Under the pieces are notes generated by a model. The model made no database searches. It saw only the letters and a program-made list of their open reading frames with translations, and was not told where the DNA came from. A program made the position numbers and the translations under genes. Shown one piece after another: positions 221-19,926 of a DNA stretch of 64,000 nt; within the stretch, counting starts at the first letter, position 1, and the number at the start of each line of letters is the position of its first letter. The DNA is from Verrucomicrobiia bacterium (GTDB taxonomy: Bacteria; Verrucomicrobiota; Verrucomicrobiia; Limisphaerales; JADLHS01), in NCBI GenBank assembly GCA_023953615.1, contig JAMLJH010000002.1, positions 1,040,492 through 1,104,491 of the forward strand. Direction: 5' to 3'.

Positions 221-298
221 TGGTCGGGGCGGCGAGATTTGAACTCGCGACCTCTTGCACCCCAAGCAAGCGCGCTAGCCAGGCTACGCTACGCCCCG
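221..298 (-). tRNA. tRNA-Pro (anticodon GGG), CCA encoded
   Basis: The reverse complement folds as a cloverleaf: acceptor CGGGGCG/CGCCCCG, anticodon stem CTTGC/GCAAG with loop TTGGGGT, T-arm GCGAG-TTCAAAT-CTCGC, then ACCA. Confidence 0.9.
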
Positions 299-708: not shown

Positions 709-719
709 CCTCCACCAAC

Positions 720-953
720 GGGGAAGATTGGCGGTTGGTGGAACTGCACTCCCAATTTTCCCATCGCCCGCCCAAACTGCGTTTGGGGCGTTTTCCCGGC
801 GATTGGCTCGGCAATGCTGCCCACCCCTTCACACCGATAGATGCTGTCCCGGTCCACATACAGGCTTTGCGGCAACCCATGCCTCTTAGCCCAGCCTTCC
901 AGCATGTCGTAGCTGGCGTGCGTCGTCTCGGCCTCAAAAAACTGTGCCCACAC
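720..953 (-). pseudogene. DDE (rve-type) transposase, internal fragment
   Basis: ..HGLPQSLYVDRDSIYR...TQFGRAMGKLGV.. resembles the integrase-core region of IS transposases. Only ~75 residues remain, with no N- or C-terminal parts. Confidence 0.45.
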
Positions 954-3096: not shown

Positions 3097-3171
3097 GGCG
3101 GGGTAGCCAAGTGGTAAGGCAGGGCTCTGCAAAAGCCTCATTCGTCGGTTCGATTCCGACCTCCGCCTCCA
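3097..3171 (+). tRNA. tRNA-Cys (anticodon GCA), CCA encoded
   Basis: Acceptor GGCGGGG/CTCCGCC (one G-T pair), anticodon loop CTGCAAA, T-arm GTCGG-TTCGATT-CCGAC, then TCCA. Confidence 0.9.
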
Positions 3172-3172
3172 A
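3148..3172 (+). repeat. attL: 25-bp core (gttcgattccgacctccgcctccaa) formed by the 3' end of tRNA-Cys
   Basis: Identical 25-mer recurs at 16667-16691. Confidence 0.8.
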
Positions 3173-3218
3173 CTTCAAGTTGCACTTTTGCAACGAGTTG
3201 CAGAATCCAGAGGGGGCA

Positions 3219-3242
3219 AGTGCCAGTGAAAGTGCCAGTGAA
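3219..3242 (+). promoter_or_regulatory. Tandem 12-mer doublet AGTGCCAGTGAA x2, candidate arm-type integrase binding sites (int-proximal arm)
   Basis: Perfect tandem copies 47 bp after the att core. The same doublet is at 16464-16487, and a variant doublet sits at the same 47-bp offset in element 2. Confidence 0.5.
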
Positions 3243-3385
3243 ATCAATACCGGGATACGACTCATCATCTACTCCGGCATTACTCGGCAATCACTCGCGA
3301 TGACGGGATTCGCAGCCCGTTTGGTGTAGCTGATACACCCAAAGCCACGTTCAGTTTCATAGCTTCGGACAGAAAGTCTGAACTT

Positions 3386-4462
3386 ATGAAACGTCGTTTC
3401 ATCCTCTACCGTCGCAAGCTCGGGGGCACATTCTACGTCGAGGACACCCAAACCCGAAAGCAGGAAAGTCTCGGCACGAAGGATCGCGCCGAGGCCACGT
3501 CCCTGCTCAACGCTCGTAACGAGTCTGTTCGCCAACCGCAACTGAATCTTCAAATCGCCAAGGCATACTTGGCTGGAACGGATTCAGGCGTCTCGACCCG
3601 GACGTGGCAACAAGCACTCGATGCCATTGTCGAAACCAAGAGCGGTTCAACCCAGGATCGCTGGAAACGTGCGGCGAAAGAAACCGCGTTGGACCATATC
3701 CGCCATCGAGTGATTCTGGAAACGCAAGCCGATCATCTGCTCGCCTGCCTCAAGGCGGGCACGGTCAGCACGAATGTTCATCTGAGGAAGTTGCACAACT
3801 TCTGCCTTTCGATGAACTGGCTGCCGTGGCCGCTCATTCCCAAGCGCCTCTGGCCGGAAGTGCGTTTCAAGGAAAGACGCGCCATCACCAGTGAAGAACA
3901 TCAGCGCATCATTGAGCGGGAAAAGAACCCGGAGCGGCGAAGCTTCTACGAACTCTGCTGGCATCTCGGCGGTTCTCAAACCGACATCGCCAATCTCAAG
4001 GCGGAGGACATTGACTGGCCCAACCAGACCATTGCTTATGCCCGGCAAAAGACCGGCAGCCTCGCAATGATTCACTTCGGGCCGGACATTGAGGCGGTTC
4101 TGCGCCGACTCAACTCAACGGGATATTTGTTCCCATATCTGCAATCCGTTCGCTCTGGCGACCGCGCCACGGAATTCAAGCAACGATGCGAAGGATTGGG
4201 AATCAAAGGCGTGTCGCTGCATTCTTACCGCTACGCTTGGGCGGAGCGGGCGAAAACGTGCGGCTACCCGGAACGATTTGCACAGGAAGCGCTCGGTCAC
4301 AACAGCAAGGCTGTGCATCGCTCCTATTCACGAAAGGCCAAGGTGAGGCTGCCCTCGCTGGAAAGCTACGAGAAGCAAAACGTGGAAGGCCGCATCATTC
4401 CATTGCTTCCGCCCGTGCCGAATCCCGAAAGAAACGGTCACTCGATTTCAGCGGCTGGTTAA
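3386..4462 (+). CDS. Tyrosine recombinase / integrase (intact)
   Basis: 358 aa. The C-terminal catalytic region has HSYRYAW (HxxR), LGHNSKAVHRSY (His and catalytic Tyr) and an upstream Arg region. It lies immediately inside attL. Confidence 0.9.
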   Translation: MKRRFILYRRKLGGTFYVEDTQTRKQESLGTKDRAEATSLLNARNESVRQPQLNLQIAKAYLAGTDSGVSTRTWQQALDAIVETKSGSTQDRWKRAAKETALDHIRHRVILETQADHLLACLKAGTVSTNVHLRKLHNFCLSMNWLPWPLIPKRLWPEVRFKERRAITSEEHQRIIEREKNPERRSFYELCWHLGGSQTDIANLKAEDIDWPNQTIAYARQKTGSLAMIHFGPDIEAVLRRLNSTGYLFPYLQSVRSGDRATEFKQRCEGLGIKGVSLHSYRYAWAERAKTCGYPERFAQEALGHNSKAVHRSYSRKAKVRLPSLESYEKQNVEGRIIPLLPPVPNPERNGHSISAAG

Positions 4463-4641
4463 GCGTTCAGTCTCCGGGAATCGTCATAAGCCGTTCCGAG
4501 TCACAAAAAAATAATTCAAATATTTTTCACCCTGCAAACATTGCAAAAAAACGATGTTGAAACCGAAAACCAGCCAAGTCGCCCCGCATAAAATCAGGGT
4601 GCTTTTGTGTCAAGTGTCGGCGGTGACATCGGTTTTGTTCA

Positions 4642-4974
4642 ATGTTTGCAAGGCTTCGGCTGCCAGATTCGCAGTTCAACAAAAGTGCGCCTGATAAAAT
4701 GATGGAGTCGTTGAATGAATCAGCGACGCAACCAAAAAAGCACATTATGGAAGCAACTGAAATGACGGACACACTCAAAAGCATCAACACGACTCCTCAT
4801 CTTTGTCGGAGCAAGGTAAAACAAACCGCGCTGGAAATTGCCGCCGCGATCCGGCCCGCCAATAAATTCAGCCGGGTTGGGATGAGCTTCGTTGAACGCA
4901 TTGAAGCCAAAGTCCGCGCCGCCATCCGTGAGGAAGTCAGGATTCATCCCAGCAAAGGCAAGACACTTTTATGA
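4642..4974 (+). CDS. Hypothetical small protein (start uncertain; alternative ATG at 4699)
   Basis: ORF in an AT-richer spacer with no recognisable motif. Confidence 0.3.
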   Translation: MFARLRLPDSQFNKSAPDKMMESLNESATQPKKHIMEATEMTDTLKSINTTPHLCRSKVKQTALEIAAAIRPANKFSRVGMSFVERIEAKVRAAIREEVRIHPSKGKTLL

Positions 4975-5005
4975 TGAGTCCAACCGATGCGTTGAATCTT
5001 CTGCA

Positions 5006-5305
5006 TCACGCGCGCCCGCCAGTCTTGTGCTTGCGGGCGTTGCGTTCCCGCCAGTAGCTCGCGATAGCATCGCTGGCGCGAGCGAGCCACTTTTCGTCGC
5101 GGCGGAATTGCTCCAGCGTTTCAGTGGCGAAGAACTTCGTGCTGTTGCGGGCTGGGTGGCCCAACGGCTTCAACAGACCTGCTGCAATAAGCATAGGAAT
5201 CTCGTGCGGCTCAAAACCGAGAAACCAAGCAGCCTGCATCGCATCAAGTCGCGCGGGAACGATCTTCCAACTCAAGAATTCGGTTTGTTGCGCAGTTACA
5301 TTCAT
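5006..5305 (-). CDS. Small HTH / excisionase-like DNA-binding protein
   Basis: 99 aa. The ..LDAMQAAWFLGFEPHEIPMLIAAGLLKPLG.. segment resembles the MerR/AlpA-type HTH of mobile-element Xis or regulators. Its start overlaps the stop of the upstream helicase ORF. Confidence 0.45.
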   Translation of the reverse strand: MNVTAQQTEFLSWKIVPARLDAMQAAWFLGFEPHEIPMLIAAGLLKPLGHPARNSTKFFATETLEQFRRDEKWLARASDAIASYWRERNARKHKTGGRA

Positions 5306-8300
5306 ACGCGGACTGCCGCGCGGCGCTTGGGCCGGGGCGAATGGGCTTGGGTTTGTTTCTCGGAAGTCTTCTGTTCGGTCGCCTCGGGAGCATCCGCATC
5401 AACCTGGCTCGGCGCTTGGTTCTTGGTGAGATCGAGCTTTTCTTCGATCTCACTTTGGCGGCGGGTCAACTCTTGGTAGCGCTCCTCGCGCTCGAAGTGT
5501 GCGCCAACTTTGGTTTCCAGCTCTTTTGCCCGCTTCGTGGCGTCGGCGATGTCGTATTCGAGTTTGGATGCGCGCTCCTCAAAGCCTTGGACGTTTGCTT
5601 CGAGTGAACGAATTGTGCCCTGCGCCGTGTCTGTCACTCGTGCGGCATAACTGTTCTTTCCGCGCACAATCATTTCGACGTTGTTGTTGAAGGTGGGACG
5701 CAGGAACAAATCGAAACCCGCAAAGCGTCCAACCCGCACGTCATCGCCGAATCGGTTTTTGATCTTCTCGGCACGACGAACAATCAATTCTCCGGCAATC
5801 CCCCGGTTGTCGAGAACTTGCCCGTCGAGTTCGATGCTGAACTTGTCGCCCGACGTGTCCTGCCGGAGAGCGATGTCCTGACGCAAGTTGGTGAGCCGTC
5901 CCGCGAACGCCTCGGCGTCCTCGTGCGAGCGACGGAGATTGGAGCGGATGCGGTATTGTTCCTCGGCATGGGCGGAACGCAGCCGCGTGAGACGGATCAA
6001 TTCCGCGTCCACCTGGGCCTTTTCAATCACGAGCGGATTACCGGAAGCAATGGCCTTCACCTCGGCGTAGGTCAGTGCGGCCGAGTCCAAATCTTCAAGG
6101 CGGCGGATCGTCATGTCGCCGCTCATCACCTGCGCGATGAACTTCGCCTTCGTCTCCAGTGTCTGCCACATATAGGCGTCAAAGCTCCCCTCCGTGACGT
6201 AGCGGAAAATCTGGATGACGGAATTCTTGTTTCCCTGCCGTAGAATCCGTCCCTCGCGCTGCTCCACGTCTGCCGGTCGCCACGGCGCATCGAAATGGTG
6301 CAAAGCGATGAGGCGTTCCTGAACATTCGTTCCCGAACCCATTTTCTGTGTGCTGCCGAAAAGGACACGCACCTTGCCCGCCCGAACGTCCCGGAATAGA
6401 GACAACTTCGCAGCATCGGAGTCATAGTCTTGAATAAAGGCGATTTCCGCACTCGGCACGCCAAGCTTCTCCAGCTTGTCCGCCGCGTCACGATAAACCG
6501 AAAAGCCCTTGTCCTTCGGCGTCGAGAGATCGCAAAAGACGAGCTGCGCGGAACGCTCCGGCTTCGACTCCTGCCAGATGAGGAAAATGTTTTCGACCGC
6601 CTGATTGACTTTGCCCTGTGGATCGTCCTTCGCGGCTGGCTTCATCAGCCGCAGATCCAAAGCAGCCTTCCTGCCCTCGGACGTAATCTTCAGCATGTTG
6701 TCCACGCTTGGATCAACACGATTGGCTTTCAGGCGCTCCGCGCGCTTGGCAAGTTCCTGAACAAATGCCTTCAACTCTGGCGTTGCTGGCGCATTTCGGA
6801 TGGTTGGCCTTTCGCCATCAAGCTTTGGCCGGGGCAAATTAAGCATTGCAGCGGTTTGCACGTCGGCGGACTGGCGGAACATCTGCATCAGCTCCGGCAC
6901 ATTGATGAAACGCGCAAAGCGCGTGTTCAGACGGTAGCCCGCGCCGTCCGGCGAAAGCTCCATCGCCGTCACCGGCTCGCCGAAAGTGGCCGCCCACGAA
7001 TCGAAGTGATGCAGATTATGTTTCTTCAGCGCGTCGTGCTGGAGATAACGCTGCATCGTGAACATTTCGGCCATGCTGTTGGCGATGGGCGTCCCGGTGG
7101 CGAACACAACGCCGCCCCCGCCGTTCAACGACTGGACGTGGCGCACCTTCAAATACATATCGAACGCCCGCTCGCTCGCGGTCTGCGGAAGCCCCGCGAT
7201 GCGTGTCATCTTGGAAACGTAGAACAGATTTTTGAAGTAGTGGGCCTCGTCCACGAGCAGCCGGTCCACGCCAAGTTCTTCAAACGTCAGCGTGTTGTCC
7301 TTTTTGTGTTCGGCAGCCAGCGTTTGAAGTTTGGCTTCAAGCCGCTTCTTCGCTTTTTCCAGTTCCTTCACCAACCGGCGATTAGAACTGTCGGCGTGTT
7401 CCCGGCGGATCATTTCCAGTTCGTGAAGCTGCTCCTTAAAAAACCGCTCCTGCGTTTCGCGTGAAAGTGGGATGCGTTCAAAACCGGAGTGCGTGACAAT
7501 GACGGCATCCCAATTGCCAGTCGCGATGCGGCTGAACAGTTTCTTGCGTTTGTGCGACTCGAAATCCTCCTTGCCTGCGGCCAGGATATTCGCGCCCGGA
7601 TACAACGTCAGCAACTCGGTAGAAAACTGCCCGAGCATGTGATTGGGGACGACAAACATTGGCTTGCCAGAAAGACCAAGCCGCCGCGATTCCATCGCAG
7701 CGGCAACCATCGTGTAGGTCTTGCCTGCGCCGACGACGTGGGCGAGCAATGTGTTCGGCGTTTGCAGAATCCGCCAGACACCGGCCTTTTGGTGCGAGTG
7801 AAGTTGAATCGCTCCGCTTGCGCCCGGCAACGTCAGGTGATCGCCGTTGAAGGTGCGAACGCGCGTGTGATTGAACGTGTCGTTGTAGAGGCGGCAAAGC
7901 CGTTCGCGGCGCGAGTCATCCGACCAGACCCATTCCTTGAATTGTTCTTTGATGCGTTCCTGCTTTTCGCGCGCGGCCTCGGTTGACTGCGCGTTCACGA
8001 CAGGCTTTTTATCCACCATGTCATAGACCGTAGGCGTTTTCAGATTGAGCGCGTCTTCAATCAATTCGAGCGCGGTATAACGGTCAGTTCCCCAATCTGT
8101 CGTGTTTGCAGTCGCGCCTTTCGCTTCCCAATTCGCGCTGATATGCCAAGTGCCGAGTGCGTGGATGTGGCCGATTTCCACACCGGACGGAATGTGGAGC
8201 AATCCATTCGTGAAATCCTGCACGTCCCCTGGCGGCAGCCAGGACGCGCCAAGGCGAACATCAATTTCCGTGGCCGCGAGGTCGGCTGAAATGAAGTCCG

Positions 8301-8352
8301 TCACCGCAAGCGAGGCCGTCCAATGGGCGGAGGAGCACTTGTTCGACCGCAA
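5302..8352 (-). CDS. SNF2/DEAD-like helicase, matching the C-terminal part of the large methylase-helicase proteins of conjugative elements; appears 5'-truncated
   Basis: Motifs LLAHVVGAGKTY (Walker A / motif I), LLVDEAHYFKN (motif II) and FGSTQKMGSGTNVQ...DAPWRPADVEQREGRILRQGN (motifs V-VI). The N-terminus begins in the LGASWLPPGDVQDF linker with no methyltransferase domain upstream. Confidence 0.7.
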   Translation of the reverse strand: MRSNKCSSAHWTASLAVTDFISADLAATEIDVRLGASWLPPGDVQDFTNGLLHIPSGVEIGHIHALGTWHISANWEAKGATANTTDWGTDRYTALELIEDALNLKTPTVYDMVDKKPVVNAQSTEAAREKQERIKEQFKEWVWSDDSRRERLCRLYNDTFNHTRVRTFNGDHLTLPGASGAIQLHSHQKAGVWRILQTPNTLLAHVVGAGKTYTMVAAAMESRRLGLSGKPMFVVPNHMLGQFSTELLTLYPGANILAAGKEDFESHKRKKLFSRIATGNWDAVIVTHSGFERIPLSRETQERFFKEQLHELEMIRREHADSSNRRLVKELEKAKKRLEAKLQTLAAEHKKDNTLTFEELGVDRLLVDEAHYFKNLFYVSKMTRIAGLPQTASERAFDMYLKVRHVQSLNGGGGVVFATGTPIANSMAEMFTMQRYLQHDALKKHNLHHFDSWAATFGEPVTAMELSPDGAGYRLNTRFARFINVPELMQMFRQSADVQTAAMLNLPRPKLDGERPTIRNAPATPELKAFVQELAKRAERLKANRVDPSVDNMLKITSEGRKAALDLRLMKPAAKDDPQGKVNQAVENIFLIWQESKPERSAQLVFCDLSTPKDKGFSVYRDAADKLEKLGVPSAEIAFIQDYDSDAAKLSLFRDVRAGKVRVLFGSTQKMGSGTNVQERLIALHHFDAPWRPADVEQREGRILRQGNKNSVIQIFRYVTEGSFDAYMWQTLETKAKFIAQVMSGDMTIRRLEDLDSAALTYAEVKAIASGNPLVIEKAQVDAELIRLTRLRSAHAEEQYRIRSNLRRSHEDAEAFAGRLTNLRQDIALRQDTSGDKFSIELDGQVLDNRGIAGELIVRRAEKIKNRFGDDVRVGRFAGFDLFLRPTFNNNVEMIVRGKNSYAARVTDTAQGTIRSLEANVQGFEERASKLEYDIADATKRAKELETKVGAHFEREERYQELTRRQSEIEEKLDLTKNQAPSQVDADAPEATEQKTSEKQTQAHSPRPKRRAAVRV

Positions 8353-10183
8353 TTCGGTCGTGCTCGAATGTCAGGTGTGGCAGGAAGCGTTGGGGCGGGC
8401 GCGCGGCGAAGGTTTTTCAGTTTCCGAACTCAAAGAGTTCACAGGGAAGCGCGGTTACATACGGGATGAGGAACGTCCCGGCGCGGTCACTTTGCGCGAA
8501 GTTCTGCTCCGCGAATGGGAAATCGTTCAGACCGCGAAAGAAGGCGTGGGTGATGCCTGGCCGCTGGTTGCGAATCCGCGTCCGGCAGATCCCAAACTCG
8601 ACGACGAACAACGAGAGGCACTCGATGCTTTGCTCTCCTCCATTAACACCGTGTCTGTGTTTCGCGGCGGCGCGGGCACGGGCAAAAGTTTTGTCCTGCA
8701 CGAGCTGGTCGAACAACTTCGGGAGTCTGGTCGGCGTGTGGTTGTTCTCGCCCCGCAGCGTCAGCAAGTCGTGGAAATGGAGAAGGCAGGATTTCCGTCA
8801 CCCTCTACGGTCGCGAATTTTATCCTCAAGCGCGAACTGGCTGAACGCGCGGTCGTTGTCGTGGACGAAGCGGGGCAAATCGGCGGGCGGCAAATGCTCG
8901 AATTGATGCGGCTGGTCCGCGAGCGGAATGCCCGGCTGATTCTGTCGGGCGACACGCGGCAGCACGGAGCTGTTGAGGCTTCGGACGCATTGCTGGCAAT
9001 CGAGCGGCACTCCGGCGTCAGGCCAGTCGAGTTGCACAAGATTCGGCGGCAAGACCCGGCGCTTGGCAAAGACGCCGATGAGCGCATACGCATCAAGGAT
9101 TATCGGAACGCAGTCGAATCAGCGGCGGCGGGCAAGTTGAGCGAATCGTTTGAACGCCTCGACAAGATGGGTGCGGTGGTGGCGTGCGGCTTGGGAGATC
9201 AAGCTGACAAGCTGGCGAAAGAATATCTCCGGCTCGCGGAACAAGAGGCTTCGGCGGTGGTCGTCTCGCAAACATGGAGTGAAGTGCATCGCGTCAACAC
9301 GCGCGTCCGCGATGCACTCAAAGACAAAGGATTGCTCGGCGCAAACGACACGATCGTTCAAGTGCTGGACAAGCTCGACTTGACGAACGCGCAGAAACGC
9401 GACGAACGGTTTTACCCGCCTGATGCCGTCGTCGTCTTCAATCAGAAAGTGCGCGAAGCTGAACCGGGTGCGAAAGGAAAGCTGGCGGGCATTTTGAAAT
9501 CGAGCGTGCTCGTCGAAGTTGGCGGAAGATTCATCACCGTTTCAAACAAAGTCCTGGATCACGTTACGGTTTATCTCCCGCGTGAAATCTCGGTTGCACA
9601 AGGCGACCGGCTTCATCTCAAAGCGAATCGCAAGCTGGCTTCAGGTGGTCGCGTCACGAATGGCGAACTTGTCACCGTGAAGTTGGTTCGTCCCGATGGC
9701 GCAGTTGAACTCACCGATGGCCGCGTCCTGGACAAAACTTTCCGCGAGTTTCTGCCGGGCTACGCCGTCACGTCCTACGGCTCGCAAGGCAAGACGGTGG
9801 ATTACGTCCTGTTCTCCGACTCGACCGTCAAGGCCGCGACGAACGCGCAGCAATGGTATGTGACCATTTCGCGCGGGCGGCGTGGCATCCGAATCTTCAC
9901 GCCGGACAAAGAGCAATTGCGCGAGAATGTGACGCGCTCCGGCCACAGGCCGCTGGCGATGGAGTTGGTGGCCGGTCTTGTCCCGCGCCGTGGCGTCCGC
10001 CTTTGGGATCGCTTGCACGTCCATCTCCTCCGATTTGGACGACGCGCCGCCGACACTTTTTGCCGGTTGAAACTGGCGCGTCGTCATCACCATCAACCCA
10101 CGCAAAAGCATGAACACAAAAACACCCGAATGTTGGTCGAGCGACCCGAACGCTCACGGCGTCAAAATCGAACTGTCGGCTGA
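8291..10183 (+). CDS. MOBF (TrwC/TraI-type) relaxase, helicase portion only (RecD-like AAA_30 + UvrD_C); N-terminal relaxase domain missing
   Basis: AVQWAEEHLFDRNSVV (linker typical after the relaxase domain), LDDEQREALDALL, FRGGAGTGKS (Walker A), VVVVDEAGQ and a C-terminal YAVTSYGSQGKTVD. No HUH or catalytic Tyr domain is present; upstream sequence belongs to the opposite-strand helicase. Confidence 0.7.
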   Translation: MKSVTASEAVQWAEEHLFDRNSVVLECQVWQEALGRARGEGFSVSELKEFTGKRGYIRDEERPGAVTLREVLLREWEIVQTAKEGVGDAWPLVANPRPADPKLDDEQREALDALLSSINTVSVFRGGAGTGKSFVLHELVEQLRESGRRVVVLAPQRQQVVEMEKAGFPSPSTVANFILKRELAERAVVVVDEAGQIGGRQMLELMRLVRERNARLILSGDTRQHGAVEASDALLAIERHSGVRPVELHKIRRQDPALGKDADERIRIKDYRNAVESAAAGKLSESFERLDKMGAVVACGLGDQADKLAKEYLRLAEQEASAVVVSQTWSEVHRVNTRVRDALKDKGLLGANDTIVQVLDKLDLTNAQKRDERFYPPDAVVVFNQKVREAEPGAKGKLAGILKSSVLVEVGGRFITVSNKVLDHVTVYLPREISVAQGDRLHLKANRKLASGGRVTNGELVTVKLVRPDGAVELTDGRVLDKTFREFLPGYAVTSYGSQGKTVDYVLFSDSTVKAATNAQQWYVTISRGRRGIRIFTPDKEQLRENVTRSGHRPLAMELVAGLVPRRGVRLWDRLHVHLLRFGRRAADTFCRLKLARRHHHQPTQKHEHKNTRMLVERPERSRRQNRTVG

Positions 10184-10466
10184 ACGGAGTCTGCTGCTGC
10201 CGTTTGATCAATTCGCCTTCGCCGAACTCAAAACCGAAGGGAAGCAGCAACACCTCCGTTTGGTCTTTGCCACGCACGAGGTTTCGATTCGCGGCAACGC
10301 CTTGCGCCGAATCGAGACAACGATGCAGCGAATGGAATTGTCATTCCTCGCCGTTTTGTCGAGCAGTGAACGAAAACTCATCGCGGAAGGCCAGCCAGTG
10401 ATTCACGACATCACCGTTACGGAGGCAAATGCGGCTGGCAAGCAACATGAACAGGTCAAATCCTGA
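10110..10466 (+). CDS. Hypothetical protein
   Basis: 118-aa ORF following the relaxase remnant, with no recognisable motif. Confidence 0.4.
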   Translation: MNTKTPECWSSDPNAHGVKIELSAERSLLLPFDQFAFAELKTEGKQQHLRLVFATHEVSIRGNALRRIETTMQRMELSFLAVLSSSERKLIAEGQPVIHDITVTEANAAGKQHEQVKS

Positions 10467-10475
10467 TCGGTCGGC

Positions 10476-11459
10476 TTATTTCGAGGGCCGGAACACGCGG
10501 ATTTCCGCGTCTTGTTGTCCGTGCTGCGGGACAGCGAGGAAAAACTCATTCAATTCGGCGGAGAAAAAGGAAGTCCGCGCGCCGGTGCGGGTGGGAATTC
10601 GTTCACGCAACTGGTAATGATCCGCATCGCGCTGGTCAACGACATCTACGAAACCTTCGCCACAGGAGACATAAAGGCGTTTAAGCGCGGCATCATAAAA
10701 CACGTCATCGGTGTCGCCGGAAATCGCAAAGTTGGTCACGGGTTTACCGGTCGTGGTATCGAAGACAACCAACCGTGCCGGTTTGCGGCAACCGACGAAC
10801 AGGCGGTGATTCGCTTCATCCAGCGCCATCGGAAAGTTGGCTTGGAACTCCTTCATCGGCCATGTCGTGGTGACGGTTTGCTTCTCGCGGTCAATAACGG
10901 CGATTTGTTTTGCGTCAGGCACGTTCACGAAGATGCGGTTTCCGTTCTTCTCCAATTGAAATGATTCCGGGTGTCCCCCGAGCTTTATGTTGCCGGTTTG
11001 TTTCATCGTCGCGGAATCAATGATGGCGAGTGCGCCGTCGCCATAGCCGTTGTAGATCAATTTCGTTTTGGCATCGAAGCGTGCGTTGTCGGCGTCGTCC
11101 AGTGAGCCGATGCTTTTCGCCAACTCGTAGGAAACGCCGTCGAACAATTTGAACGTGCCGTCGTTTCCGTTGGCGACGCCGATTTGGTTCGCTTCCGGCA
11201 GAAAGACCACGCCTGTCGGCATGTGAAGACCGTTGATGCTCTTGACCCGCTTGCCCGCTGCCACGTCGAGCACTTCAAGGGTGTCGTTTCCAAGTGCAGC
11301 GACAAAGAGACGGTGATTCTTTGCATCTATGGCAAAATGGTCGAACCGTCCTTTGACACCGGGTAGCGGAATGGTCTTGATGAGTTTGAGCGTGTTGGAT
11401 TCCTGCGCCCCAGCGTAGAGGGCGACGGAACAGAGCAGCGATAAAGCAAGTGACCGCAT
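10476..11459 (-). CDS. Secreted YncE-like / lactonase-type 7-bladed beta-propeller protein
   Basis: Signal peptide MRSLALSLLCSVALYAGA. Repeated ..RLFV...G...V.V(I)D.. blades. Confidence 0.65.
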   Translation of the reverse strand: MRSLALSLLCSVALYAGAQESNTLKLIKTIPLPGVKGRFDHFAIDAKNHRLFVAALGNDTLEVLDVAAGKRVKSINGLHMPTGVVFLPEANQIGVANGNDGTFKLFDGVSYELAKSIGSLDDADNARFDAKTKLIYNGYGDGALAIIDSATMKQTGNIKLGGHPESFQLEKNGNRIFVNVPDAKQIAVIDREKQTVTTTWPMKEFQANFPMALDEANHRLFVGCRKPARLVVFDTTTGKPVTNFAISGDTDDVFYDAALKRLYVSCGEGFVDVVDQRDADHYQLRERIPTRTGARTSFFSAELNEFFLAVPQHGQQDAEIRVFRPSK

Positions 11460-11469
11460 AGGTTGAGAG

Positions 11470-12090
11470 CTATTTGCTGCCGTAAGTGAAATCATCGAAC
11501 AGCGTCACGCTATCGGCCTTTGTCCACACGCCGACCATGCCCGCGTCCTTGAAGCTGTCGTCGCTGGCTTCGATAACTTTCTTGCCGTCAAACGTGACGG
11601 TGAATTTATTTCCCGCAAAATCCACGCGCAACGTGTGCCATACGCCAGACGCGACCTTGGTGTCGGAGTTTTTGAACGAGACGCGCTTGCCTTTGATCGT
11701 GTGGTAAATGGTCACGTTGTCTTCGAGCGCGTTGGCGCGGGCGATGTAATAATTGTCCGCATCCGCGCAGCGCCAGATGACGCCGCCCGCCTGATCTTCC
11801 TTGCCGCTGACGGGCTTAAACTTCACTTCGACGAAGCCATCCTTGAGGCTCGTGTCATCCTTGATGCAAACCGGGTAAGTCGCTTCGCCGGATTGTTTGA
11901 GGACGTTTGGTTTGCTCGGCGCGGTGTCGTCCTTTTCAACCGTCCACTTCGCGTTGCCGCTGCCGGTCTTGGTCGCGGTCCAACCGGCTGGAGCTTCGCC
12001 GATTTTGGCGTCGTCGAAATTGACGGTCTGTGCGAGCGCAGCATTGGCTAGAACACTCGTTCCGATAATCATAGCAGTGATAGTTTTCAT
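11470..12090 (-). CDS. Secreted DUF1080 (3-keto-disaccharide hydrolase / LamG-like) domain protein
   Basis: Signal peptide, then W.V....(D/G)...L...., FVEVKFK and GVW.KADSVTLFDDF, typical of DUF1080. Confidence 0.65.
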   Translation of the reverse strand: MKTITAMIIGTSVLANAALAQTVNFDDAKIGEAPAGWTATKTGSGNAKWTVEKDDTAPSKPNVLKQSGEATYPVCIKDDTSLKDGFVEVKFKPVSGKEDQAGGVIWRCADADNYYIARANALEDNVTIYHTIKGKRVSFKNSDTKVASGVWHTLRVDFAGNKFTVTFDGKKVIEASDDSFKDAGMVGVWTKADSVTLFDDFTYGSK

Positions 12091-12103
12091 AGTTAGAGTG
12101 TTT

Positions 12104-12136
12104 CACCGGCAACCGCTCGCTCGCATGTTGCCGGTG
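12104..12136 (-). terminator. Perfect 10-bp stem hairpin (caccggcaac / gttgccggtg) between two co-oriented genes
   Basis: Inverted repeat seen directly. There is no clear U-tract, so a terminator role is uncertain. Confidence 0.25.
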
Positions 12137-12149
12137 AGGTTGCGTGATT

Positions 12150-12512
12150 TCATTTTACGGCGGAAACGTAGATGACCTGTGTGCCGCCTTTTTTGACGAG
12201 CGTTCCCTCGACCGTGACGGTTTCGGCCATTTTATCAATCAACACATCCTTGCCCGGCTGATGGTCTTTGATGCCCATCATCACATAGATTTCGCCTTTT
12301 TCGGTGAGCAGACCGATGGGATTTCCCGCCTTGGCGCACGCCGTCCCGCATTTTTTGTGCTCCGCACCGTGGTCGCCGCCTTCGAGGTAACACCATAAGT
12401 CAACAACCTCGCCTTTGACCGTGATGGCGTCGCCTTTCGGATCGGCGAACGTGGGAGTGACGCCCAACAGAAACAGCGGCAAAGCCGCTATCGCTACACG
12501 AATGATTTTCAT
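12150..12512 (-). CDS. Small secreted Cys/His-containing protein, unknown function
   Basis: Signal peptide MKIIRVAIAALPLFLLGVTPTFA. Segment WCYLEGGDHGAEHKKCGTACAKAG. The ATG at 12512 is chosen over the longer track ORF. Confidence 0.55.
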   Translation of the reverse strand: MKIIRVAIAALPLFLLGVTPTFADPKGDAITVKGEVVDLWCYLEGGDHGAEHKKCGTACAKAGNPIGLLTEKGEIYVMMGIKDHQPGKDVLIDKMAETVTVEGTLVKKGGTQVIYVSAVK

Positions 12513-12559
12513 TTTGTTCCTTTCATTTATCTCCGGGCATCCCGAAGAAATTGTTTTGG

Positions 12560-13447
12560 TTACTTGCTTTGCGTGGCGAGCGCGGCTTTCAGCGCCGCCG
12601 CCAAATCGGCCGTCTTGCCTCTGCCCCAATAATGCAGAAAGAGAATGCGCGGGTTCTCGTGCGTCATGTGACTGTGAATCGCCACGATGTTGATCCCGTC
12701 ATGGCGAAGCGATTTCAACACCTGCTGCAATTCGTCTTCCAACACGGCGAAATCGCCATCCACGAGCGCATTGTCGTCCGCGCCCGCAAACGCCGCCCAG
12801 GTGTTCACGCCCATTTCCTTGGTCATTTCGCAGCCACACGGCATTTTCGTTGTGCGTCCGATGACGATTTTGAACATGCCGTTGTTCGCCTGCCCCTTGA
12901 CGCCGAGCAGGTCTTCGATGGTTTTGCCGGTAATGGAATTCGTGGCGGGCATAGCCGCACCGCCGAAGCTTTTCCCTGGCTGCGAATTCACCGCGCGGAT
13001 TTCCTTCACCTTGTCCCACATTTTGCGAACAGCGGCGGCGAGCTTGTCTGCCTCGCCCATGCCGCTGATGTGCATGAAATAAACCTTCGGCTCGTCATAA
13101 AAGAAATGGTTGTGCAGGGCGGTGACGGAAAGACCGTTGTCCAAGGCGACGCTCATCACGGGATTCACCTCGTCCTGAAACAGCACCGTGTCGCCCATCA
13201 CCATCACGTCGTCGGTCTTTTGTTCCGTGAACGCGGCCCATGAAGCCAGCCCCATAAACGGCGGCATCGTCCAACCGTCCACGGCGATTTTTACGTCGTT
13301 ACGCGGCGAAGTGACTTTGAAGACTCCTTCGTTGGTGTTGAGCGTGCCTTTGACACCCGTGAGTTGTTCGATTTTGGCGGTGTCGAGACCTGCGCCGTGA
13401 CAACACAAATTGACGGCAGCAAGTGCAAACAGAATGGCTTTTTTCAT
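12560..13447 (-). CDS. Secreted DUF1259 (LpqO/LppY-like) two-repeat protein
   Basis: Signal peptide MKKAILFALAAVNLC. The two halves each end in ..ALHNHFF..P.V.FMH / ..AIHSHMTHE.PRILFLH, as I recall for DUF1259. Confidence 0.55.
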   Translation of the reverse strand: MKKAILFALAAVNLCCHGAGLDTAKIEQLTGVKGTLNTNEGVFKVTSPRNDVKIAVDGWTMPPFMGLASWAAFTEQKTDDVMVMGDTVLFQDEVNPVMSVALDNGLSVTALHNHFFYDEPKVYFMHISGMGEADKLAAAVRKMWDKVKEIRAVNSQPGKSFGGAAMPATNSITGKTIEDLLGVKGQANNGMFKIVIGRTTKMPCGCEMTKEMGVNTWAAFAGADDNALVDGDFAVLEDELQQVLKSLRHDGINIVAIHSHMTHENPRILFLHYWGRGKTADLAAALKAALATQSK

Positions 13448-13484
13448 GGTGACTGTTTTGATAAAGGGTTTGGTCGTGATTTTT

Positions 13485-14111
13485 TCAAGAGGTGACGCGG
13501 ATATTCGCGAACGCAACCGTGCCGGTGTGAACCTGGAGTCCGATGAAGCCGGAGTCGGGGTCTTCGCTCTTTTTCTTGCCGCGAAATTGCTCGCTTGCCG
13601 CAGCGGTGAAAACCGTGGCGGGCTGGCCGTTGAGTTTCACTTCGTATGTGCGGTCGGTCACTTTGATCTCGTAGGAGTGCCAAACGCCGGAAGCGAGACG
13701 CTGATTGTTCGTGTAGTTCTGCTGGCCAACCGCTGTGCCCTGGGTTTTGATTTTGTAAATCGCCCCCGTGCGGTTGAAGAACAAGCCGTCAGCTTCGTTC
13801 TTCCGCGTGTCGCCGCGCGCTTCTTCATCAATCTGGATTTCGTAGCCGGTATCCACCGCGACCGTGGCGAGGTTTCCGGGCACGTCCGGTCCGGGTGTTC
13901 CAGGCAACACCGGCTTGCGCGGATCACGGAAGCGAACGAAGACACCGGAGTTGTCGTTGAAACCGCCGCGCGGATGCGGCAGGCAGAAATCGAGGCGCAG
14001 CGTGAAGTTATTGAATTGCTTCCCGGTGTAGTAGAGCAGGCCGATGCCATTGCCAGGTTGAGCGATCAATGAGCGGCCCGCGATGACAAAGCGATTGCCT
14101 CCTCCCGGCAT
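13485..14111 (-). CDS. DUF1080-domain protein, no signal peptide in this frame (possibly N-terminally damaged)
   Basis: ..YTGKQFNNFTLRLDF.., GYEIQIDE and GFIGLQVHTGTVAFANIRV are typical DUF1080 motifs. Confidence 0.6.
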   Translation of the reverse strand: MPGGGNRFVIAGRSLIAQPGNGIGLLYYTGKQFNNFTLRLDFCLPHPRGGFNDNSGVFVRFRDPRKPVLPGTPGPDVPGNLATVAVDTGYEIQIDEEARGDTRKNEADGLFFNRTGAIYKIKTQGTAVGQQNYTNNQRLASGVWHSYEIKVTDRTYEVKLNGQPATVFTAAASEQFRGKKKSEDPDSGFIGLQVHTGTVAFANIRVTS

Positions 14112-14329
14112 CTCGGCCAGCTTCGCGCGCTAGATTTGGGAATCGCCATCGGTTCGGCGGCGAAGACGGCGAGCCTCAACAACATTGATATGCGCTGCCA
14201 GACGCGAATCGCCGCCGCCGCGAGACACTTGAAAGTCATTCAAGCTGATCTTGCCGTAGCTGTGTCCATGAGCGTGAGTCACAAGAACATTTTCTTCGAC
14301 AAGAAGATGCCGGAGATAAAGTTCCCCGC

Positions 14330-15580
14330 GTGAGCGGTTGGCGCAACATCGGGGAGTTTCTCGCACTGCGGCGGAATACGTCGCTGATGCTCGTCGCCCT
14401 CGTCCTGGCTGGCACGGGCGAAAGACTTTGGCTTGGCTTCGCACCCAAATACATCGAAACGCTCGGTGGCGGAATTCTCATTATCGGCTTGTTCGACGCG
14501 CTGCAAACTTTCCTTGGCGCGATCTACGCCTATCCTGGCGGCTGGCTCACCGACCATTGGGGACAGCGCCGTTCACTGTTGTTGTTCAGCGTGATTTCCG
14601 TGGCGGGCTACATTCTGGTTTTGCTCTGGCCACACTGGCTAGCGCTGTTGCTCGGCTCGTTTCTATTTCTGGCATGGAGCGCTTTATCACTGCCCGCGAC
14701 ATTTTCAGTCGTCGCCACGTCGCTTGAAAAACATCAGCACACGATGGGCATCGGCGTGCAATCCATGATTCGTCGTGTGCCGATGATGCTCGGCCCGCTC
14801 ATCGGCGGCTTGTTGCTCACGCGCTACGGCTGGACGGACGGCGTGCGTTACGCACTCGCGCTCTGCATCGCGATGAGCCTGTTGACGGCGGCGTTTCAAT
14901 GGCTCATGTTCGAGCCGCATGGAAAATCCGCAGCGCCGGGCTACATTCCACCTGACGCGGGGGGTTCATTCCTCGGCGTCGTCAAATCTTTCACGCCTGC
15001 GTTGCGCGAACTTCTCGTGAGCGACATCCTCATCCGCTTCTGCGAACGGATTCCGTATGCGTTCGTGATTTTGTGGGCGATGGATTCCGGCGGCGTGACG
15101 GCGCAACAATTTGGTTATCTCATCACGTTTGAAATGGTCACGGCAATGCTCTGCTACATTCCTGTCGCGCATCTCGCCGACAAATACGGTCGCCGTCCAT
15201 TCGTGCTGGCGACGTTCATTTTCTTCACACTGTTTCCGTTGTCGCTGCTGTGGGCGCACAATTTCGCGTGGTTGGCACTGGCGTTCGTCGTGCGCGGGCT
15301 GAAGGAATTTGGTGAACCTGCGCGCAAGGCACTCATCATCGGCGAGGCCACGCCCGAACTTCGCGCGCGGACATACGGCGCGTATTATCTTATCCGCGAT
15401 TGCTTCGTAACGAGTGGTTCATTTCTCGGCGCGTGGCTGTGGCACATCAGCCCGCAAGCGAATTTCCTCGGTGCGGCGGTTTGCGGCGCGCTCGGCACAA
15501 TCTGGTTTTGGTGGTTCATCTACCGAAGGAATGAAGTAACGCGGATAGGTCCAGAATTGCAAAAGTCGGTCAAAGTGTAG
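14330..15580 (+). CDS. MFS transporter
   Basis: 416 aa, about 12 hydrophobic segments, and a GWLTDHWGQRRSLL loop (MFS motif A-like). Start codon is GTG. Confidence 0.8.
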   Translation: MSGWRNIGEFLALRRNTSLMLVALVLAGTGERLWLGFAPKYIETLGGGILIIGLFDALQTFLGAIYAYPGGWLTDHWGQRRSLLLFSVISVAGYILVLLWPHWLALLLGSFLFLAWSALSLPATFSVVATSLEKHQHTMGIGVQSMIRRVPMMLGPLIGGLLLTRYGWTDGVRYALALCIAMSLLTAAFQWLMFEPHGKSAAPGYIPPDAGGSFLGVVKSFTPALRELLVSDILIRFCERIPYAFVILWAMDSGGVTAQQFGYLITFEMVTAMLCYIPVAHLADKYGRRPFVLATFIFFTLFPLSLLWAHNFAWLALAFVVRGLKEFGEPARKALIIGEATPELRARTYGAYYLIRDCFVTSGSFLGAWLWHISPQANFLGAAVCGALGTIWFWWFIYRRNEVTRIGPELQKSVKV

Positions 15581-15608
15581 CCTCCTTTTTTCAGGAAGCC
15601 GTTACCGG

Positions 15609-16154
15609 CTAGGAGAAAAAATAGCCAAGGGAGCGAAGCGATGAGTGGTTGGGATTACCGATGACTATGTGATCGAGGACTTCGATTTTGAGAAGTTGCC
15701 CGGCTCGGATGAGGTCGCGGGTGATTTTGATGTCAGCTTCCGAAGGAGTTGATTCACCGCTCGGATGATTGTGCGCGATGATGATTGCAGCGGCACTCGC
15801 CATGATGGCTAAACGGAACACCTCCCTGGGATGACAGAGAATTGTATCCATCGTTCCAATGGACACCAGATAGTGGCCCTTGATGCGCCGACGTGTGTTG
15901 AGGATGAACACCACCAAACATTCACATTCAGAATTGAAGTAAGGATGTGTCGCGATATGCGTTTTCCAATAGGCGGCTGCCTGATCCGGTGTTTCGCACT
16001 GTTGCATGGTGTCGGGTGTAGGACATTCCCGAAGTGATACGATTTTCCATTCCTGCGGTTGAGACGGGAATTTGATCGGCTTGACGATGGTGTTCGTGGG
16101 TTGCGGAGTGATTGCGGGGCATCCGGTGGAGATGAGGTTTTCCGTTGTGTTCAT
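15609..16154 (-). CDS. RadC-like JAB-domain protein (DUF2466 type found on mobile elements)
   Basis: The HNHPSGESTPSEADIKITRDL signature and C-terminal VLDHIVIG. The ATG at 16154 is preferred; the 272-aa track ORF extension is low-complexity. Confidence 0.75.
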   Translation of the reverse strand: MNTTENLISTGCPAITPQPTNTIVKPIKFPSQPQEWKIVSLRECPTPDTMQQCETPDQAAAYWKTHIATHPYFNSECECLVVFILNTRRRIKGHYLVSIGTMDTILCHPREVFRLAIMASAAAIIIAHNHPSGESTPSEADIKITRDLIRAGQLLKIEVLDHIVIGNPNHSSLRSLGYFFS

Positions 16155-16160
16155 GTTTTG

Positions 16161-16355
16161 CGTTTCGTTCTGAAGGAGCGGGACTGCTCTCTTCACCGCA
16201 CCGGGAGAGCAGCCCCGCTCCTGACGAAACGCACCCGTCTGCGCCCGCGCCGCCGGGCAGCGGAGCATCAGCAACGAAGTGACAGCGGACGAAAGGATGT
16301 TTCGTCCGCTGGCGCGAGGTTGCGCGGAGCAACCAGAGGCGCGGGTGCAGACGGG
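16161..16355 (-). other. Densely nested hairpin region upstream of the radC-like gene (candidate structured RNA or single-strand DNA element)
   Basis: Pairings: 16161-16167/16225-16231, 16175-16191/16205-16221 (17 bp, 1 mismatch), 16234-16251/16338-16355 (18 bp, 1 mismatch) and 16283-16294/16300-16311 (12 bp perfect). Confidence 0.4.
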
Positions 16356-16463
16356 ATGAACACAGCGGATAACCTCATCGGCGGATGCCCGCTGCGTTGG
16401 CAAGCAAACACCGATGGCGAATGCCATTTAGCCCTGATAAACAGGGCATTTTTTACAAAAAGA

Positions 16464-16487
16464 AGTGCCAGTGAAAGTGCCAGTGAA
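16464..16487 (+). promoter_or_regulatory. AGTGCCAGTGAA x2 doublet, candidate arm-type integrase sites (distal arm of element 1)
   Basis: Identical to 3219-3242 and in the same orientation, about 180 bp before the second att core. Confidence 0.45.
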
Positions 16488-16666
16488 CAGGTGATAAATG
16501 AGTAATTGGCGAGTAGTTGATTGGCATCGAGTGCGTGATGCCGAGTGCTTGACAGATGTGCTAAAACGCCTGATTCTATTGGCGTTCGTTAGTTATGAGG
16601 CTGTTCGCCTCTGGTGGTGGGGCGGTAATCGCGGAGTAGTGAGTTTCGGAAAAACTCCCTGCATCT

Positions 16667-16691
16667 GTTCGATTCCGACCTCCGCCTCCAA
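16667..16691 (+). repeat. Second copy of the 25-bp tRNA-Cys 3'-end core (attR of element 1 and left att of element 2)
   Basis: Exact match to 3148-3172. The upstream sequence cannot form a T-arm, so this is not a tRNA gene. Confidence 0.8.
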
Positions 16692-16737
16692 TTCCAAACA
16701 ACTTTTGGACAAGGAGTTACAAATCTCACAGCCCTCA

Positions 16738-16761
16738 AGTGCCAGCAAAAGTGCCAGCAGA
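16738..16761 (+). promoter_or_regulatory. Variant 12-mer doublet AGTGCCAGCAAA / AGTGCCAGCAGA, candidate arm-type sites of element 2
   Basis: Begins 47 bp after the att core, the same offset as 3219 relative to 3172. Confidence 0.45.
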
Positions 16762-16902
16762 TTTGTGACTCGGAATTACTCAACAACAACTCCGCGATCA
16801 CCCCGGCACGACTTGCTGAAACGCAATTGGCCGTGCGTTTGGTGTCATTGAGACACCTGCCCTTCGTCCTCGCTTGGCAGGCTCGAACAAAAAATTCGAG
16901 CC

Positions 16903-17556
16903 ATGAAAAACCGATTTCGCCTCTACCGCCGCAAGAAGGGCGGCATGTTCTACGCCCACGATTCCGAAACTGGCAAACAGGAGAGCCTCGGAACAAAAGA
17001 CCGCGCCGAAGCGACCACTCTGCTCAACGCCCGCAACGAATCGTTTCGCCAGCCTCAACTCAATCTCCACATTGCCAAAGCCTACCTGGCGGGGACGGAT
17101 TCCGGCGTCTCCACGCGGACCTGGCAGGACGCCCTGAACGCGATCATTGAAAACAAGGAGGGTTCGACCAAAGATCGCTGGGTTCGGGCGGCAAAGGAGC
17201 CGGCGCTCGACTTGATTCGCGGGAAGGTCATCCTTGAAACCCAAGCCGAGCAACTGCTCGCCTGCCTCAAGGCTGGCACGGTCAGCACCAACGTCCATTT
17301 GCGCAAGCTCCACAACTTCTGCCTCGCGATGAACTGGCTGCCGTGGCCGATCATTCCGAAGCGACTCTGGCCGGAAGTCCGCTTTCAACCCAAGCGCGCC
17401 ATCACGCTGGAGGAACATCAGCGGATCATTGAGCGAGAGAAGAACCCCGAGCGACAGAGCTTCTACGAACTCTGCTGGCATCTGGGCGGCTCGCAAACGG
17501 ACATCGCCAACCTCAAGGCCGAGGACGTTGACTGGCCCAACCGGACCATTCCATAA
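16903..17556 (+). pseudogene. Tyrosine integrase paralog, truncated after codon ~216 (no catalytic domain)
   Basis: Aligns colinearly with the integrase at 3386-4462, with about 35 differences in 217 residues by manual alignment. Homology stops near 17550. Confidence 0.8.
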
Positions 17557-18624
17557 TCAGTAGTAGTGGCCTTTGGTCTTGGCGATGAGTTCACGAACAG
17601 AGCGGTCGCCAGTGATGTCATCGCCGGGGCGACCGCGAGCGGAGCGAGGGGGAAGGCCAGAACCAGCGATGATGATCGCGCCGGCGCTGCCCTGGCCGGC
17701 GGCAGTCGAGAGCGTGCTCAGGATCGCCGCCATGCCGGTTGCACCCACGGTGGCGAGGGGCAGCCCGGTGGTGGAGGCGACGGCCGCCGCACCCGCCGTG
17801 GTGGCAGCGGTCTGGAGAAAACTGCCGACTGCACCAGAAATGAGCTGGCCGCCTGCGAGCGTGCCGTAGCTGATAACCTTCTGGATGACGACCGGTGCAG
17901 AAATGGTACTGAACACGATCCAAAAGGCCACGACCGCCACTCCAAACGTGGCTTGCAGGGAATAGAGCGTGGCGGTTGGGTCAATGAATTTGAAAGCCGG
18001 GTCGGTCATGAAATCGAGAATGCCCTGGGTGATGAGCGCCGCGACGGCCCAGCCGAGCGGCCAGAGCAGCACGCCAACGATGTGCATCAGGTAGCGGCTG
18101 CCGATCGACCGCAGCGGGCGAATGGCCATAAAGCCAATCATTAGGGGCGAGAGCGCGTAGGCGGTGAACAGGATGAACTTCTGAATGATGTAGGCCCAGA
18201 ACAGCAGCAGCGACGCGAACTGACCAAAGAGCCAGAGAAAGCCAGAGATGAGAAGTTCAACGGTAAAACTGTTGAGGTCGCTCAAAATATCCCACCAAGA
18301 ACGGTCAGTCCCGGTATCACGCTTGATGATGAGCAACTGATTGTATTGGTCTTGAACGTTCGACGGATCAACGCCCAAGCCGTCGAGAATGGAGGTTTGC
18401 AGGAGTTGTTGGGCCTGATTGCCCCATTGCGGCAGCATTACCAGCAGGGCGGTCAACACGAACAAGCGCACGATGTGCAAGATGAGCGTCTTTCCGTTGA
18501 AGCCGTGGACGACCAAAAGGATCGTCCCGACGATGAACAACATGAACGCCACGATGCGCAGCAATTCGTGCAGTTCGACGCACTTTTGCAGGAACGTCGG
18601 GAAGAGTTGTTCAAAGGTTGCCAT
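17557..18624 (-). CDS. trbL: TrbL/VirB6-family type IV secretion inner-membrane protein
   Basis: 355 aa with multiple TM segments and a Gly/Ala-rich tail, located downstream of a TrbJ-like gene as in P-type T4SS operons. Confidence 0.65.
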   Translation of the reverse strand: MATFEQLFPTFLQKCVELHELLRIVAFMLFIVGTILLVVHGFNGKTLILHIVRLFVLTALLVMLPQWGNQAQQLLQTSILDGLGVDPSNVQDQYNQLLIIKRDTGTDRSWWDILSDLNSFTVELLISGFLWLFGQFASLLLFWAYIIQKFILFTAYALSPLMIGFMAIRPLRSIGSRYLMHIVGVLLWPLGWAVAALITQGILDFMTDPAFKFIDPTATLYSLQATFGVAVVAFWIVFSTISAPVVIQKVISYGTLAGGQLISGAVGSFLQTAATTAGAAAVASTTGLPLATVGATGMAAILSTLSTAAGQGSAGAIIIAGSGLPPRSARGRPGDDITGDRSVRELIAKTKGHYY

Positions 18625-18648
18625 AGTCGGGACGATTTGAGGGGGCGG

Positions 18649-19916: not shown

Positions 19917-19926
19917 ACGTAACGGG

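Follow-up and report, generated by a model that had tools for sequence, protein, structure and literature searches.

Site-specific integration at the 3′ end of a single gene, decay through internal deletion and the build-up of tandem arrays with an internal att scar have been described for the integrative and conjugative elements (ICEs) ICESt1 and ICESt3 and the cis-mobilisable elements (CIMEs) of Streptococcus thermophilus, and for the composite tRNA-Lys islands of Streptococcus agalactiae (PMC5704250). Accretion and cis-mobilisation are documented for elements of the ICESt1/ICESt3 type, and a CIME is understood as an element that has kept attL and attR while its integration and transfer genes have been lost (PMC5704250). 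Integration, decay and array formation of this kind are also found in the 64,000-nt stretch analysed here (the window), which comes from a Verrucomicrobiia bacterium (assembly GCA_023953615.1, contig JAMLJH010000002.1, positions 1,040,492 to 1,104,491 of the forward strand) and carries an element, E1, at positions 3173-16691. We hold with high confidence that E1 is a decayed ICE of an abundant Verrucomicrobiota family that integrates at the 3′ end of tRNA-Cys(GCA). Its host phylum and its target, tRNA-Cys, set it apart from the streptococcal islands. Both att sites are kept in E1, but with its intact integrase gene it falls outside the strict meaning of CIME; the second element behind it, E2, has lost its outer att site.

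A further comparison is provided by ICEs of the MOBF/type IV secretion kind, such as the ICEclc-type islands at tRNA-Gly. The E1 family resembles these in its tRNA-adjacent tyrosine integrase and in a backbone that includes a TrwC/TraI-type relaxase-helicase, a type IV coupling protein (T4CP), a VirB/Trb-like type IV secretion system (T4SS), a large SNF2-type helicase and cargo hot spots. However, no sequence relationship is detectable beyond the domain level, the arm motif and the small open reading frame (ORF) orf99 are specific to the E1 family, and E1 itself is devoid of transfer functions. E1 follows the ordinary ICE pattern of tRNA integration, decay by deletion and tandem accretion, and is of a kind already known. 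No description of a verrucomicrobial tRNA-Cys ICE was found in literature searches, and the family appears to be undescribed in the literature searched.

Integration at the 3′ end of tRNA-Cys

The tRNA-Cys(GCA) gene lies at 3097-3171 on the plus strand (ARAGORN; Rfam RF00005 at 3097-3168, 63.6 bits) and is the integration target, its 3′ end being regenerated by E1. The final 24 nt of this gene, encoded CCA included, and one further base form a 25-mer, GTTCGATTCCGACCTCCGCCTCCAA, which a repeat search places at 3148-3172 (attL core) and again, on the same strand, at 16667-16691 (attR core); the preliminary description had given this direct repeat with the same coordinates and composition. These two are the only exact copies in the window, no third copy was found there with up to 3 mismatches allowed, and 100 dinucleotide-preserving shuffles yielded no match. 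The second copy had been read as an att scar rather than a second tRNA, and so it is: neither ARAGORN nor Rfam calls a tRNA there, and the 51 nt on its 5′ side (16616-16666) agree in register with the 5′ part of tRNA-Cys at only 24 of 51 positions. Over all segments compared, such in-register matches have a mean of 13.2 and a standard deviation of 3.1, with 24 or more reached in 90 of 127,898 cases, and the attR of one relative (L100; relatives are designated by locus number) gives 25 of 51. The attP of E1 seems, from these alignments, to hold a vestigial full-length tRNA-Cys-like sequence.

That the repeats are att sites is borne out by the empty tRNA-Cys site, which had been proposed as a check and was found in close relatives. 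In a 12,089-nt contig from SRR12908348 (L019), tRNA-Cys (window 3108-3172) runs straight into 16692-27556 at 99.99% identity, and the same tRNA-Cys::16692 junction is present in a contig from SRR12234146 (L004) that continues for only 8 nt past the core. The occupied junction is found in contigs of sister samples, such as L002 (SRR12908309). Over 10.9 kb of flanking sequence, about 1 nt distinguishes an occupied from an empty genome. Both empty-site contigs were presumably assembled with k = 31, as in the Logan pipeline; because this exceeds the 25-nt repeat, the k-mers across the empty-site junction must stem from reads. E1 is present in some genomes and absent from others, with the exact repeat as the boundary. 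Integration would proceed through recombination, by the tyrosine integrase, of the 25-bp attP core of a circular element with the tRNA gene, whose 3′ end is identical to it; the tRNA would thereby be rebuilt at attL, and a scar of the core would stay behind at attR.

An abundant family of Verrucomicrobiota elements

More than 7,000 close homologues of the E1 integrase (Int1) exist, and those with a named source belong to Verrucomicrobiota. A scan limited to one genome per species provided 80 integrase loci, nearly all from metagenome-assembled genomes (MAGs) of Verrucomicrobiota, Limisphaerales or Pedosphaerales, of which 67 had enough upstream sequence to be evaluated. A complete tRNA-Cys lies directly upstream of int in 43 of these 67 loci; most others show a core scar alone, and the integrase therefore sits within a tandem array.

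In the relatives, the left part of the backbone consists of tRNA-Cys, core, arm, int, orf99, the gene for a 1623-aa helicase on the minus strand and cargo. The T4SS genes follow (TrbI, CagX/TrbG, a 355-aa protein in the TrbL position, TrbJ-like, VirB4-like and TrbC), and the right part contains T4CP and ParA, a 951-aa MobF/TrwC relaxase, orf118, cargo, RadC, cargo, arm and core. The left-end signature of the family is found in E1, with the tRNA-Cys core, a tandem GTGCCAGNN arm, an integrase of at least 77% identity, orf99 and a large minus-strand helicase gene, as is the right-end order of relaxase, orf118, cargo, RadC, arm (about 180-190 nt before the core) and core. Over the attR region (16463-16693), homology extends to the right ends of relatives, with 75% identity to L023/L024, 91% to L100 and the same arm-to-core spacing as in these loci; E1 therefore has both genuine ends of an ICE of the subtype that we call TG, after its arm motif.

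Several observations were made on the relatives themselves. Defence-type cargo lies near their ends, including a KAP-NTPase/QatB/QueC (Qat-like) set, AbiEi/AbiEii pairs and a ubiquitin-like/E2/ThiF-JAB set (L023, 16970-21449; L017, 18267-19771; L021, 23-1689; L108, 6081-8234). Some MAG records that carry the ICE bear the titles Bifidobacterium, Bifidobacteriaceae, Limnocylindria or Saccharimonadales (L028, L023, L051, L059 and L096) and are probably mislabelled or mis-binned. On CAZQNQ010000004.1 (L028, L023), a TG-type int and a relaxase-near attR stand about 115 kb apart, which hints at an element of very large size or at an array of several elements.

The integrase, its arm-type repeats and orf99

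An intact tyrosine integrase had been reported directly inside the tRNA-proximal repeat, and Int1 is indeed a 358-aa ORF (3386-4462, plus strand) that starts 214 nt inside the repeat and matches Phage_integrase PF00589 with 37 bits against a cut-off of 27.1. Compared pairwise with solved recombinases, it gives weak matches, none better than E = 8e-4. From an alignment to XerC-like 4a8e and a residue census across the 80 relatives, the catalytic residues K222, H279, R282, H305 and Y314 are present, and the Arg-I position is taken by Ser197. Within the family, this position holds Ser in 76 of 80 integrases and Ala in the remaining 4, K, HxxR, H and Y are conserved, and R220, downstream of the Arg-I position, is invariant in all 79 aligned sequences. 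A functional precedent is offered by the IntCTnDOT subgroup, in which the first Arg of RKHRH is absent and an alternative Arg lies downstream (PMC8138268). Ser is found in place of this Arg in both Int1 and IntDOT, and an Arg is kept farther downstream, R220 in Int1; the likeness is one of function and does not make Int1 a member of that subgroup. A protein identical to Int1 is present in another sample, and Int1 is identical or 97% identical to the integrases of complete ICEs.

To the earlier account we add the paired arm-type repeats. Two tandem 12-bp copies of AAGTGCCAGTGA, the TG type, lie 46 nt past the attL core (P′ arm, 3218-3242, plus strand), and this 25-nt double repeat recurs exactly at 16463-16487 on the same strand, about 180 nt ahead of the attR core (P arm). 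A tandem arm motif is found about 48 nt past the core in 52 of the 67 evaluable loci, as GTGCCAGTG (TG) in 31 and as GTGCCAGCA (the CA type) in 21, and the spacing and flanking sequence of the P arm are conserved in the attR of the intact relatives L023/L024 and in L100. E1 resembles a lambda-type attP in that its short core has the same sequence as attB, that motif repeats lie some 46 nt away on one side and about 180 nt on the other, and that arm motifs are present at both ends of the integrated element. It differs in that its arms are putative and that all repeats are direct, in one orientation and two per arm.

Integrases of the lambda type carry arm-binding domains in their N-terminal region. 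The paired repeats of E1 are, judging by their layout, putative arm-type integrase-binding sites, and as 12-bp sites flanking the core they would probably position the integrase through its N-terminal domain. In a set of 24 TG and 12 CA sequences, each arm type goes without exception with its own residues at integrase positions 6 (I/R), 19 (E/H), 21 (T/S) and 24 (R/G), all within the first 24 residues.

The minus-strand ORF orf99 (5006-5305, 99 aa) accompanies int in nearly all relatives in a tblastn survey and has 591 homologues, none of them named. The preliminary description had listed an excisionase-like helix-turn-helix protein; a conserved ORF does travel with int, but support for its helix-turn-helix or Xis identity is weak. 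Orf99 has no match in Pfam or NCBIfam, its AlphaFold2 model is weak (predicted local distance difference test score, pLDDT, of 65), and in a Foldseek search of the PDB the resemblance of this model to MerR/Xis winged-helix proteins is non-significant, with nothing better than E = 0.2. For these reasons, the excisionase label stays a guess from position and conservation, and orf99 is a candidate excision/directionality factor or regulator.

Decay of E1 by internal deletion

Both the helicase and the relaxase gene had been described as truncated, which homologue alignments and Pfam matches confirm. The SNF2/ResIII-type helicase ORF, called at 5302-8352 on the minus strand, aligns from its own residue 23 with residues 631-1623 of the full-length 1623-aa backbone homologue at 86-89% identity (homologous part 5302-8288), its N-terminal 630 aa being deleted. 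The MobF/TrwC relaxase ORF, called at 8102-10183 on the plus strand and with a possible internal start at 8291, retains the AAA_30/TraI-type helicase part (8284-10183, about aa 327-951) and is missing aa 1-326, that is, the TrwC domain PF08751 of the 951-aa homologues. Helicase homology reaches up to 8288 and relaxase homology begins at 8284, so that the C-terminal 993 aa of the one and the C-terminal 625 aa of the other meet head-to-head at a junction (8284-8288) with a microhomology of at most 5 nt. These nucleotide boundaries point to a single illegitimate deletion, which removed the 5′ parts of both genes together with the T4SS, the T4CP, ParA and the relaxase catalytic domain. Pfam scans and the survey of relatives found no coupling protein and no T4SS genes in E1 (3173-16691). 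Because it is without T4SS, coupling protein and relaxase domain, E1 cannot transfer itself, as had been predicted. Nothing of the region that lies upstream of the relaxase gene in relatives was found in E1; oriT would be expected in this region and has presumably been lost with it.

A second internal deletion, at 14116-14119, adds to the earlier account. The relatives L115 and L116 match 9847-14119 and 14116-14919 at 100% identity, with 4,026 extra bp in between that encode the rest of an 897-aa GMC-oxidoreductase/DUF1080 protein, ChrB and DUF2148. At least two illegitimate deletions have shaped E1, one at 8284-8288 that took the transfer functions and one at 14116-14119 that took 4 kb of cargo. 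The E1-specific junction at 8284-8288 has no exact match in metagenome contigs of the Joint Genome Institute (JGI), and contig look-ups with orf118 and the major facilitator (MFS) protein of E1 never reached attR in other samples.

A rearranged version was observed in L107 (Logan SRR12908309_12945), which is 100% identical to window 3221-30520 apart from two changes: the stretch 3716-5998 lies in inverted orientation, which splits int1, its junctions being clean and showing AAT/ATT microhomology, and 10 nt of filler stand in place of window 7244-17037. L107 represents a structural variant of the population that has decayed further, or else it was misassembled.

A second element and a tandem array

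The sequence past attR is not chromosome but a second, more decayed ICE of the sister subtype, E2 (16692-25313), which the preliminary description had missed. E2 stands directly after attR, and the true island is therefore a tandem array, 3173-25313, with E1 as its tRNA-proximal member. At its left end, a repeat search identifies a P′ arm of the CA type (AAGTGCCAGCA x2, 16737-16761, plus strand), followed by a 216-codon integrase fragment, Int2 (16903-17556, plus strand), which is 84% identical to Int1 and 97-98% identical at the nucleotide level to intact CA-type integrase genes. Int2 homology stops at about 17549-17552. The T4SS remnants of E2, both on the minus strand, begin at 17557 with a 355-aa membrane protein in the TrbL/VirB6 position (17557-18624) and continue with a TrbJ/VirB5-like DUF4141 protein (18649-19497). 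The cargo recognised by Pfam consists of a 67-aa ThiC gene fragment (19641-19844, minus strand), TetR (19927-20520), DUF6448 (to 21220) and HlyD/MacB/ABC efflux genes (21238-24319). E2 ends on the minus strand (24444-25313) with a 141-aa ORF and with residues 765-911, the final 147, of a 911-aa VirB4/TraC-like ATPase, to which this remnant is 99% identical.

Two relatives with an intact T4SS operon, L106 and L110, match window 17549-25313 at 99.7% identity and carry the ThiC fragment, TetR, DUF6448 and HlyD/MacB/ABC between the trbJ-like gene and the 141-aa ORF with its VirB4-like gene. ICE homology stops at 25313, inside virB4, and the attR of E2 is lost; no further core or arm copy that would close E2 was found in the window with up to 3 mismatches. 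From this comparison and that of the integrase genes, E2 is therefore a remnant, 16692-25313, without the integrase C-terminus, most transfer genes and attR. The ThiC fragment was also considered as truncated chromosome at the edge of the island, which was rejected since L106 has this fragment within its intact T4SS operon. Recognisable housekeeping genes (PEPCK, GGT and RNase PH) begin by about 27 kb.

Excision and alternative explanations

E1 shares with ICEs an integrase and flanking att repeats at a specific target; it has no relaxase catalytic domain, coupling protein or T4SS, and so falls outside the definition of an ICE, and E2 contributes fragments only. Integrative and mobilisable elements (IMEs) have an oriT of their own, and usually a relaxase, which work with a helper T4SS; in E1 the relaxase domain is missing, as is the stretch that precedes the relaxase gene in relatives. 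E1 is best called a decayed ICE derivative that is probably still excisable. Because both att sites, int and orf99 are retained, it is very probably able to excise and re-integrate. As an account of the empty site, recent excision appears more economical than non-acquisition, since the flanks are nearly identical, int is intact and cores and arms match perfectly, and we lean modestly towards it.

Several points weigh against this reading of E1. The canonical first Arg of the catalytic pentad is replaced by Ser, so that the activity of Int1 is argued by analogy with CTnDOT-type integrases; orf99 belongs to no recognisable family and has only a low-confidence model; and oriT was not located in any relative, its loss from E1 being deduced from position alone. 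The attP junction of a circular form (E1 right end, core and left end), which the preliminary description had suggested looking for, has no exact match in the JGI contigs. The strains with an empty site need not be excisants and could belong to lineages in which E1 was never present. The covariation between arm type and integrase residues is suggestive and not conclusive, because the TG and CA types are also two clades, and it could reflect their common ancestry instead of binding specificity.

The strongest alternative, which we judge appreciably less probable than an excisable E1, is that a complete ICE decayed in place and E1 is now fixed and inactive, the empty strains never having received it and the repeats being relics. 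The two or more deletions and the missing attP junction are consistent with such a history, as is L107, whose inverted and further deleted version in a related population suggests continuing decay. However, int is intact and matches the integrases of complete ICEs so closely, both cores are exact and the arm pairs are exact copies of each other. Moreover, with about 1 nt of difference over 10.9 kb of flanking sequence, an acquisition and two deletions would have had to take place within a very short time, whereas one excision would be enough to account for the polymorphism.

The two subtypes, which share one 25-bp core and differ in their arms and in four integrase residue switches, could constitute an orthogonal addressing system, in which each stacked element is precisely excised by its own integrase and int-proficient derivatives such as E1, instead of being dead remnants, persist and move as hitch-hikers in arrays; we offer this as speculation and consider it rather unlikely. 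The E1 left end is found at 99.9% identity in another sample, SRR11845633 (L001), behind the right end of a CA-type element and not behind a tRNA, which places E1, or the intact ICE from which it derives, in at least two array contexts. This arrangement also agrees with E1 being a functional non-autonomous element of the IME/CIME type, still spreading through intact ICEs of its family in trans, or in cis within an array that shares the core. Tandem arrays are common in the family, and cis-mobilisation with accretion has its precedent in ICESt1/ICESt3-type elements (PMC5704250). Derivatives that keep int, orf99, the C-terminal piece of the helicase, the helicase part of the relaxase and orf118 have arisen repeatedly and independently (L021/L050, with different breakpoints; L043, with a full relaxase and no T4SS; also L036 and L027). 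Such spread is nevertheless improbable for E1, which has neither the relaxase domain nor the region where oriT is expected, and whose deletion junction was not seen in the JGI contigs. L001 ends at window 6130 and may represent the intact parent ICE rather than E1, because it stops before the 8284-8288 junction, and the array cannot excise as a composite because E2 has no attR. Finally, a prophage or phage satellite, or a 25-mer repeated by chance or dispersed in the genome, is refuted, even though tRNA-gene integration by a tyrosine integrase is typical of prophages too: Pfam and NCBIfam scans show no phage structural or replication genes (no capsid, terminase or tail matches), relatives carry T4SS, coupling protein and MobF relaxase, and the 25-mer is a unique pair in the window, never recovered in shuffles, that coincides exactly with the presence/absence boundary.

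Remaining gene content and other features of the window

About 22 kb downstream of tRNA-Cys (3173-25313) is to be annotated as mobile DNA and not as core chromosome, including a TetR/MacAB-type efflux module and DUF1080/DUF1259/MFS cargo. Through this locus, a very abundant family of ICEs from soil and freshwater Verrucomicrobiota becomes accessible; its defined target, defined att architecture, frequent tandem arrays and frequent defence-system cargo help to delimit islands in MAGs. The phylum has few genetic tools, and the integrase with its att sites could in principle serve as a tool for site-specific integration.

In E1, the relaxase fragment is followed by orf118 (10110-10466, plus strand), a 118-aa backbone ORF that is always next after the relaxase gene in relatives. 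The cargo block (10476-15580, both strands), delimited by Pfam and by comparison with L115/L116, comprises on the minus strand a secreted beta-propeller protein (10476-11495), a DUF1080 protein (11470-12090), a small ORF (12150-12629), a DUF1259 protein (12560-13516) and the C-terminal fragment of the 897-aa GMC-oxidoreductase/DUF1080 protein (13485-14111), and on the plus strand the MFS transporter (14330-15580). The RadC-like gene noted earlier (15609-16427, minus strand) matches PF04002, a JAB-domain family, and is, from the relatives, a conserved right-end backbone gene. The GC profile, suggested before as a means of setting E1 apart, does not separate it (about 0.56) from its flanks (0.55-0.59); only the efflux cargo of E2 is GC-rich (0.62-0.64).

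Elsewhere in the window, a tRNA-Pro gene lies at 221-298 (minus strand) and is adjoined by a 136-aa ORF (430-840, plus strand; MANLMHHVQSGNHYARIRVRGKLIWKSLKTD...) that resembles the N-terminal part of another integrase, with a weak DUF6538 match (E = 0.036), and may be a further integrase remnant. The region 42000-46000 has a lower GC content (0.53), a 23-nt inverted repeat (43808-43902) and a 55-nt direct repeat at 44182 and 44817 (85% identity), and may be another foreign or regulatory region. A 1019-aa ORF (52631-55690, minus strand) contains internal direct repeats of 82-nt and 21-nt families, spaced by 138, 153, 276 and 291 nt, which indicates a repetitive-domain protein.

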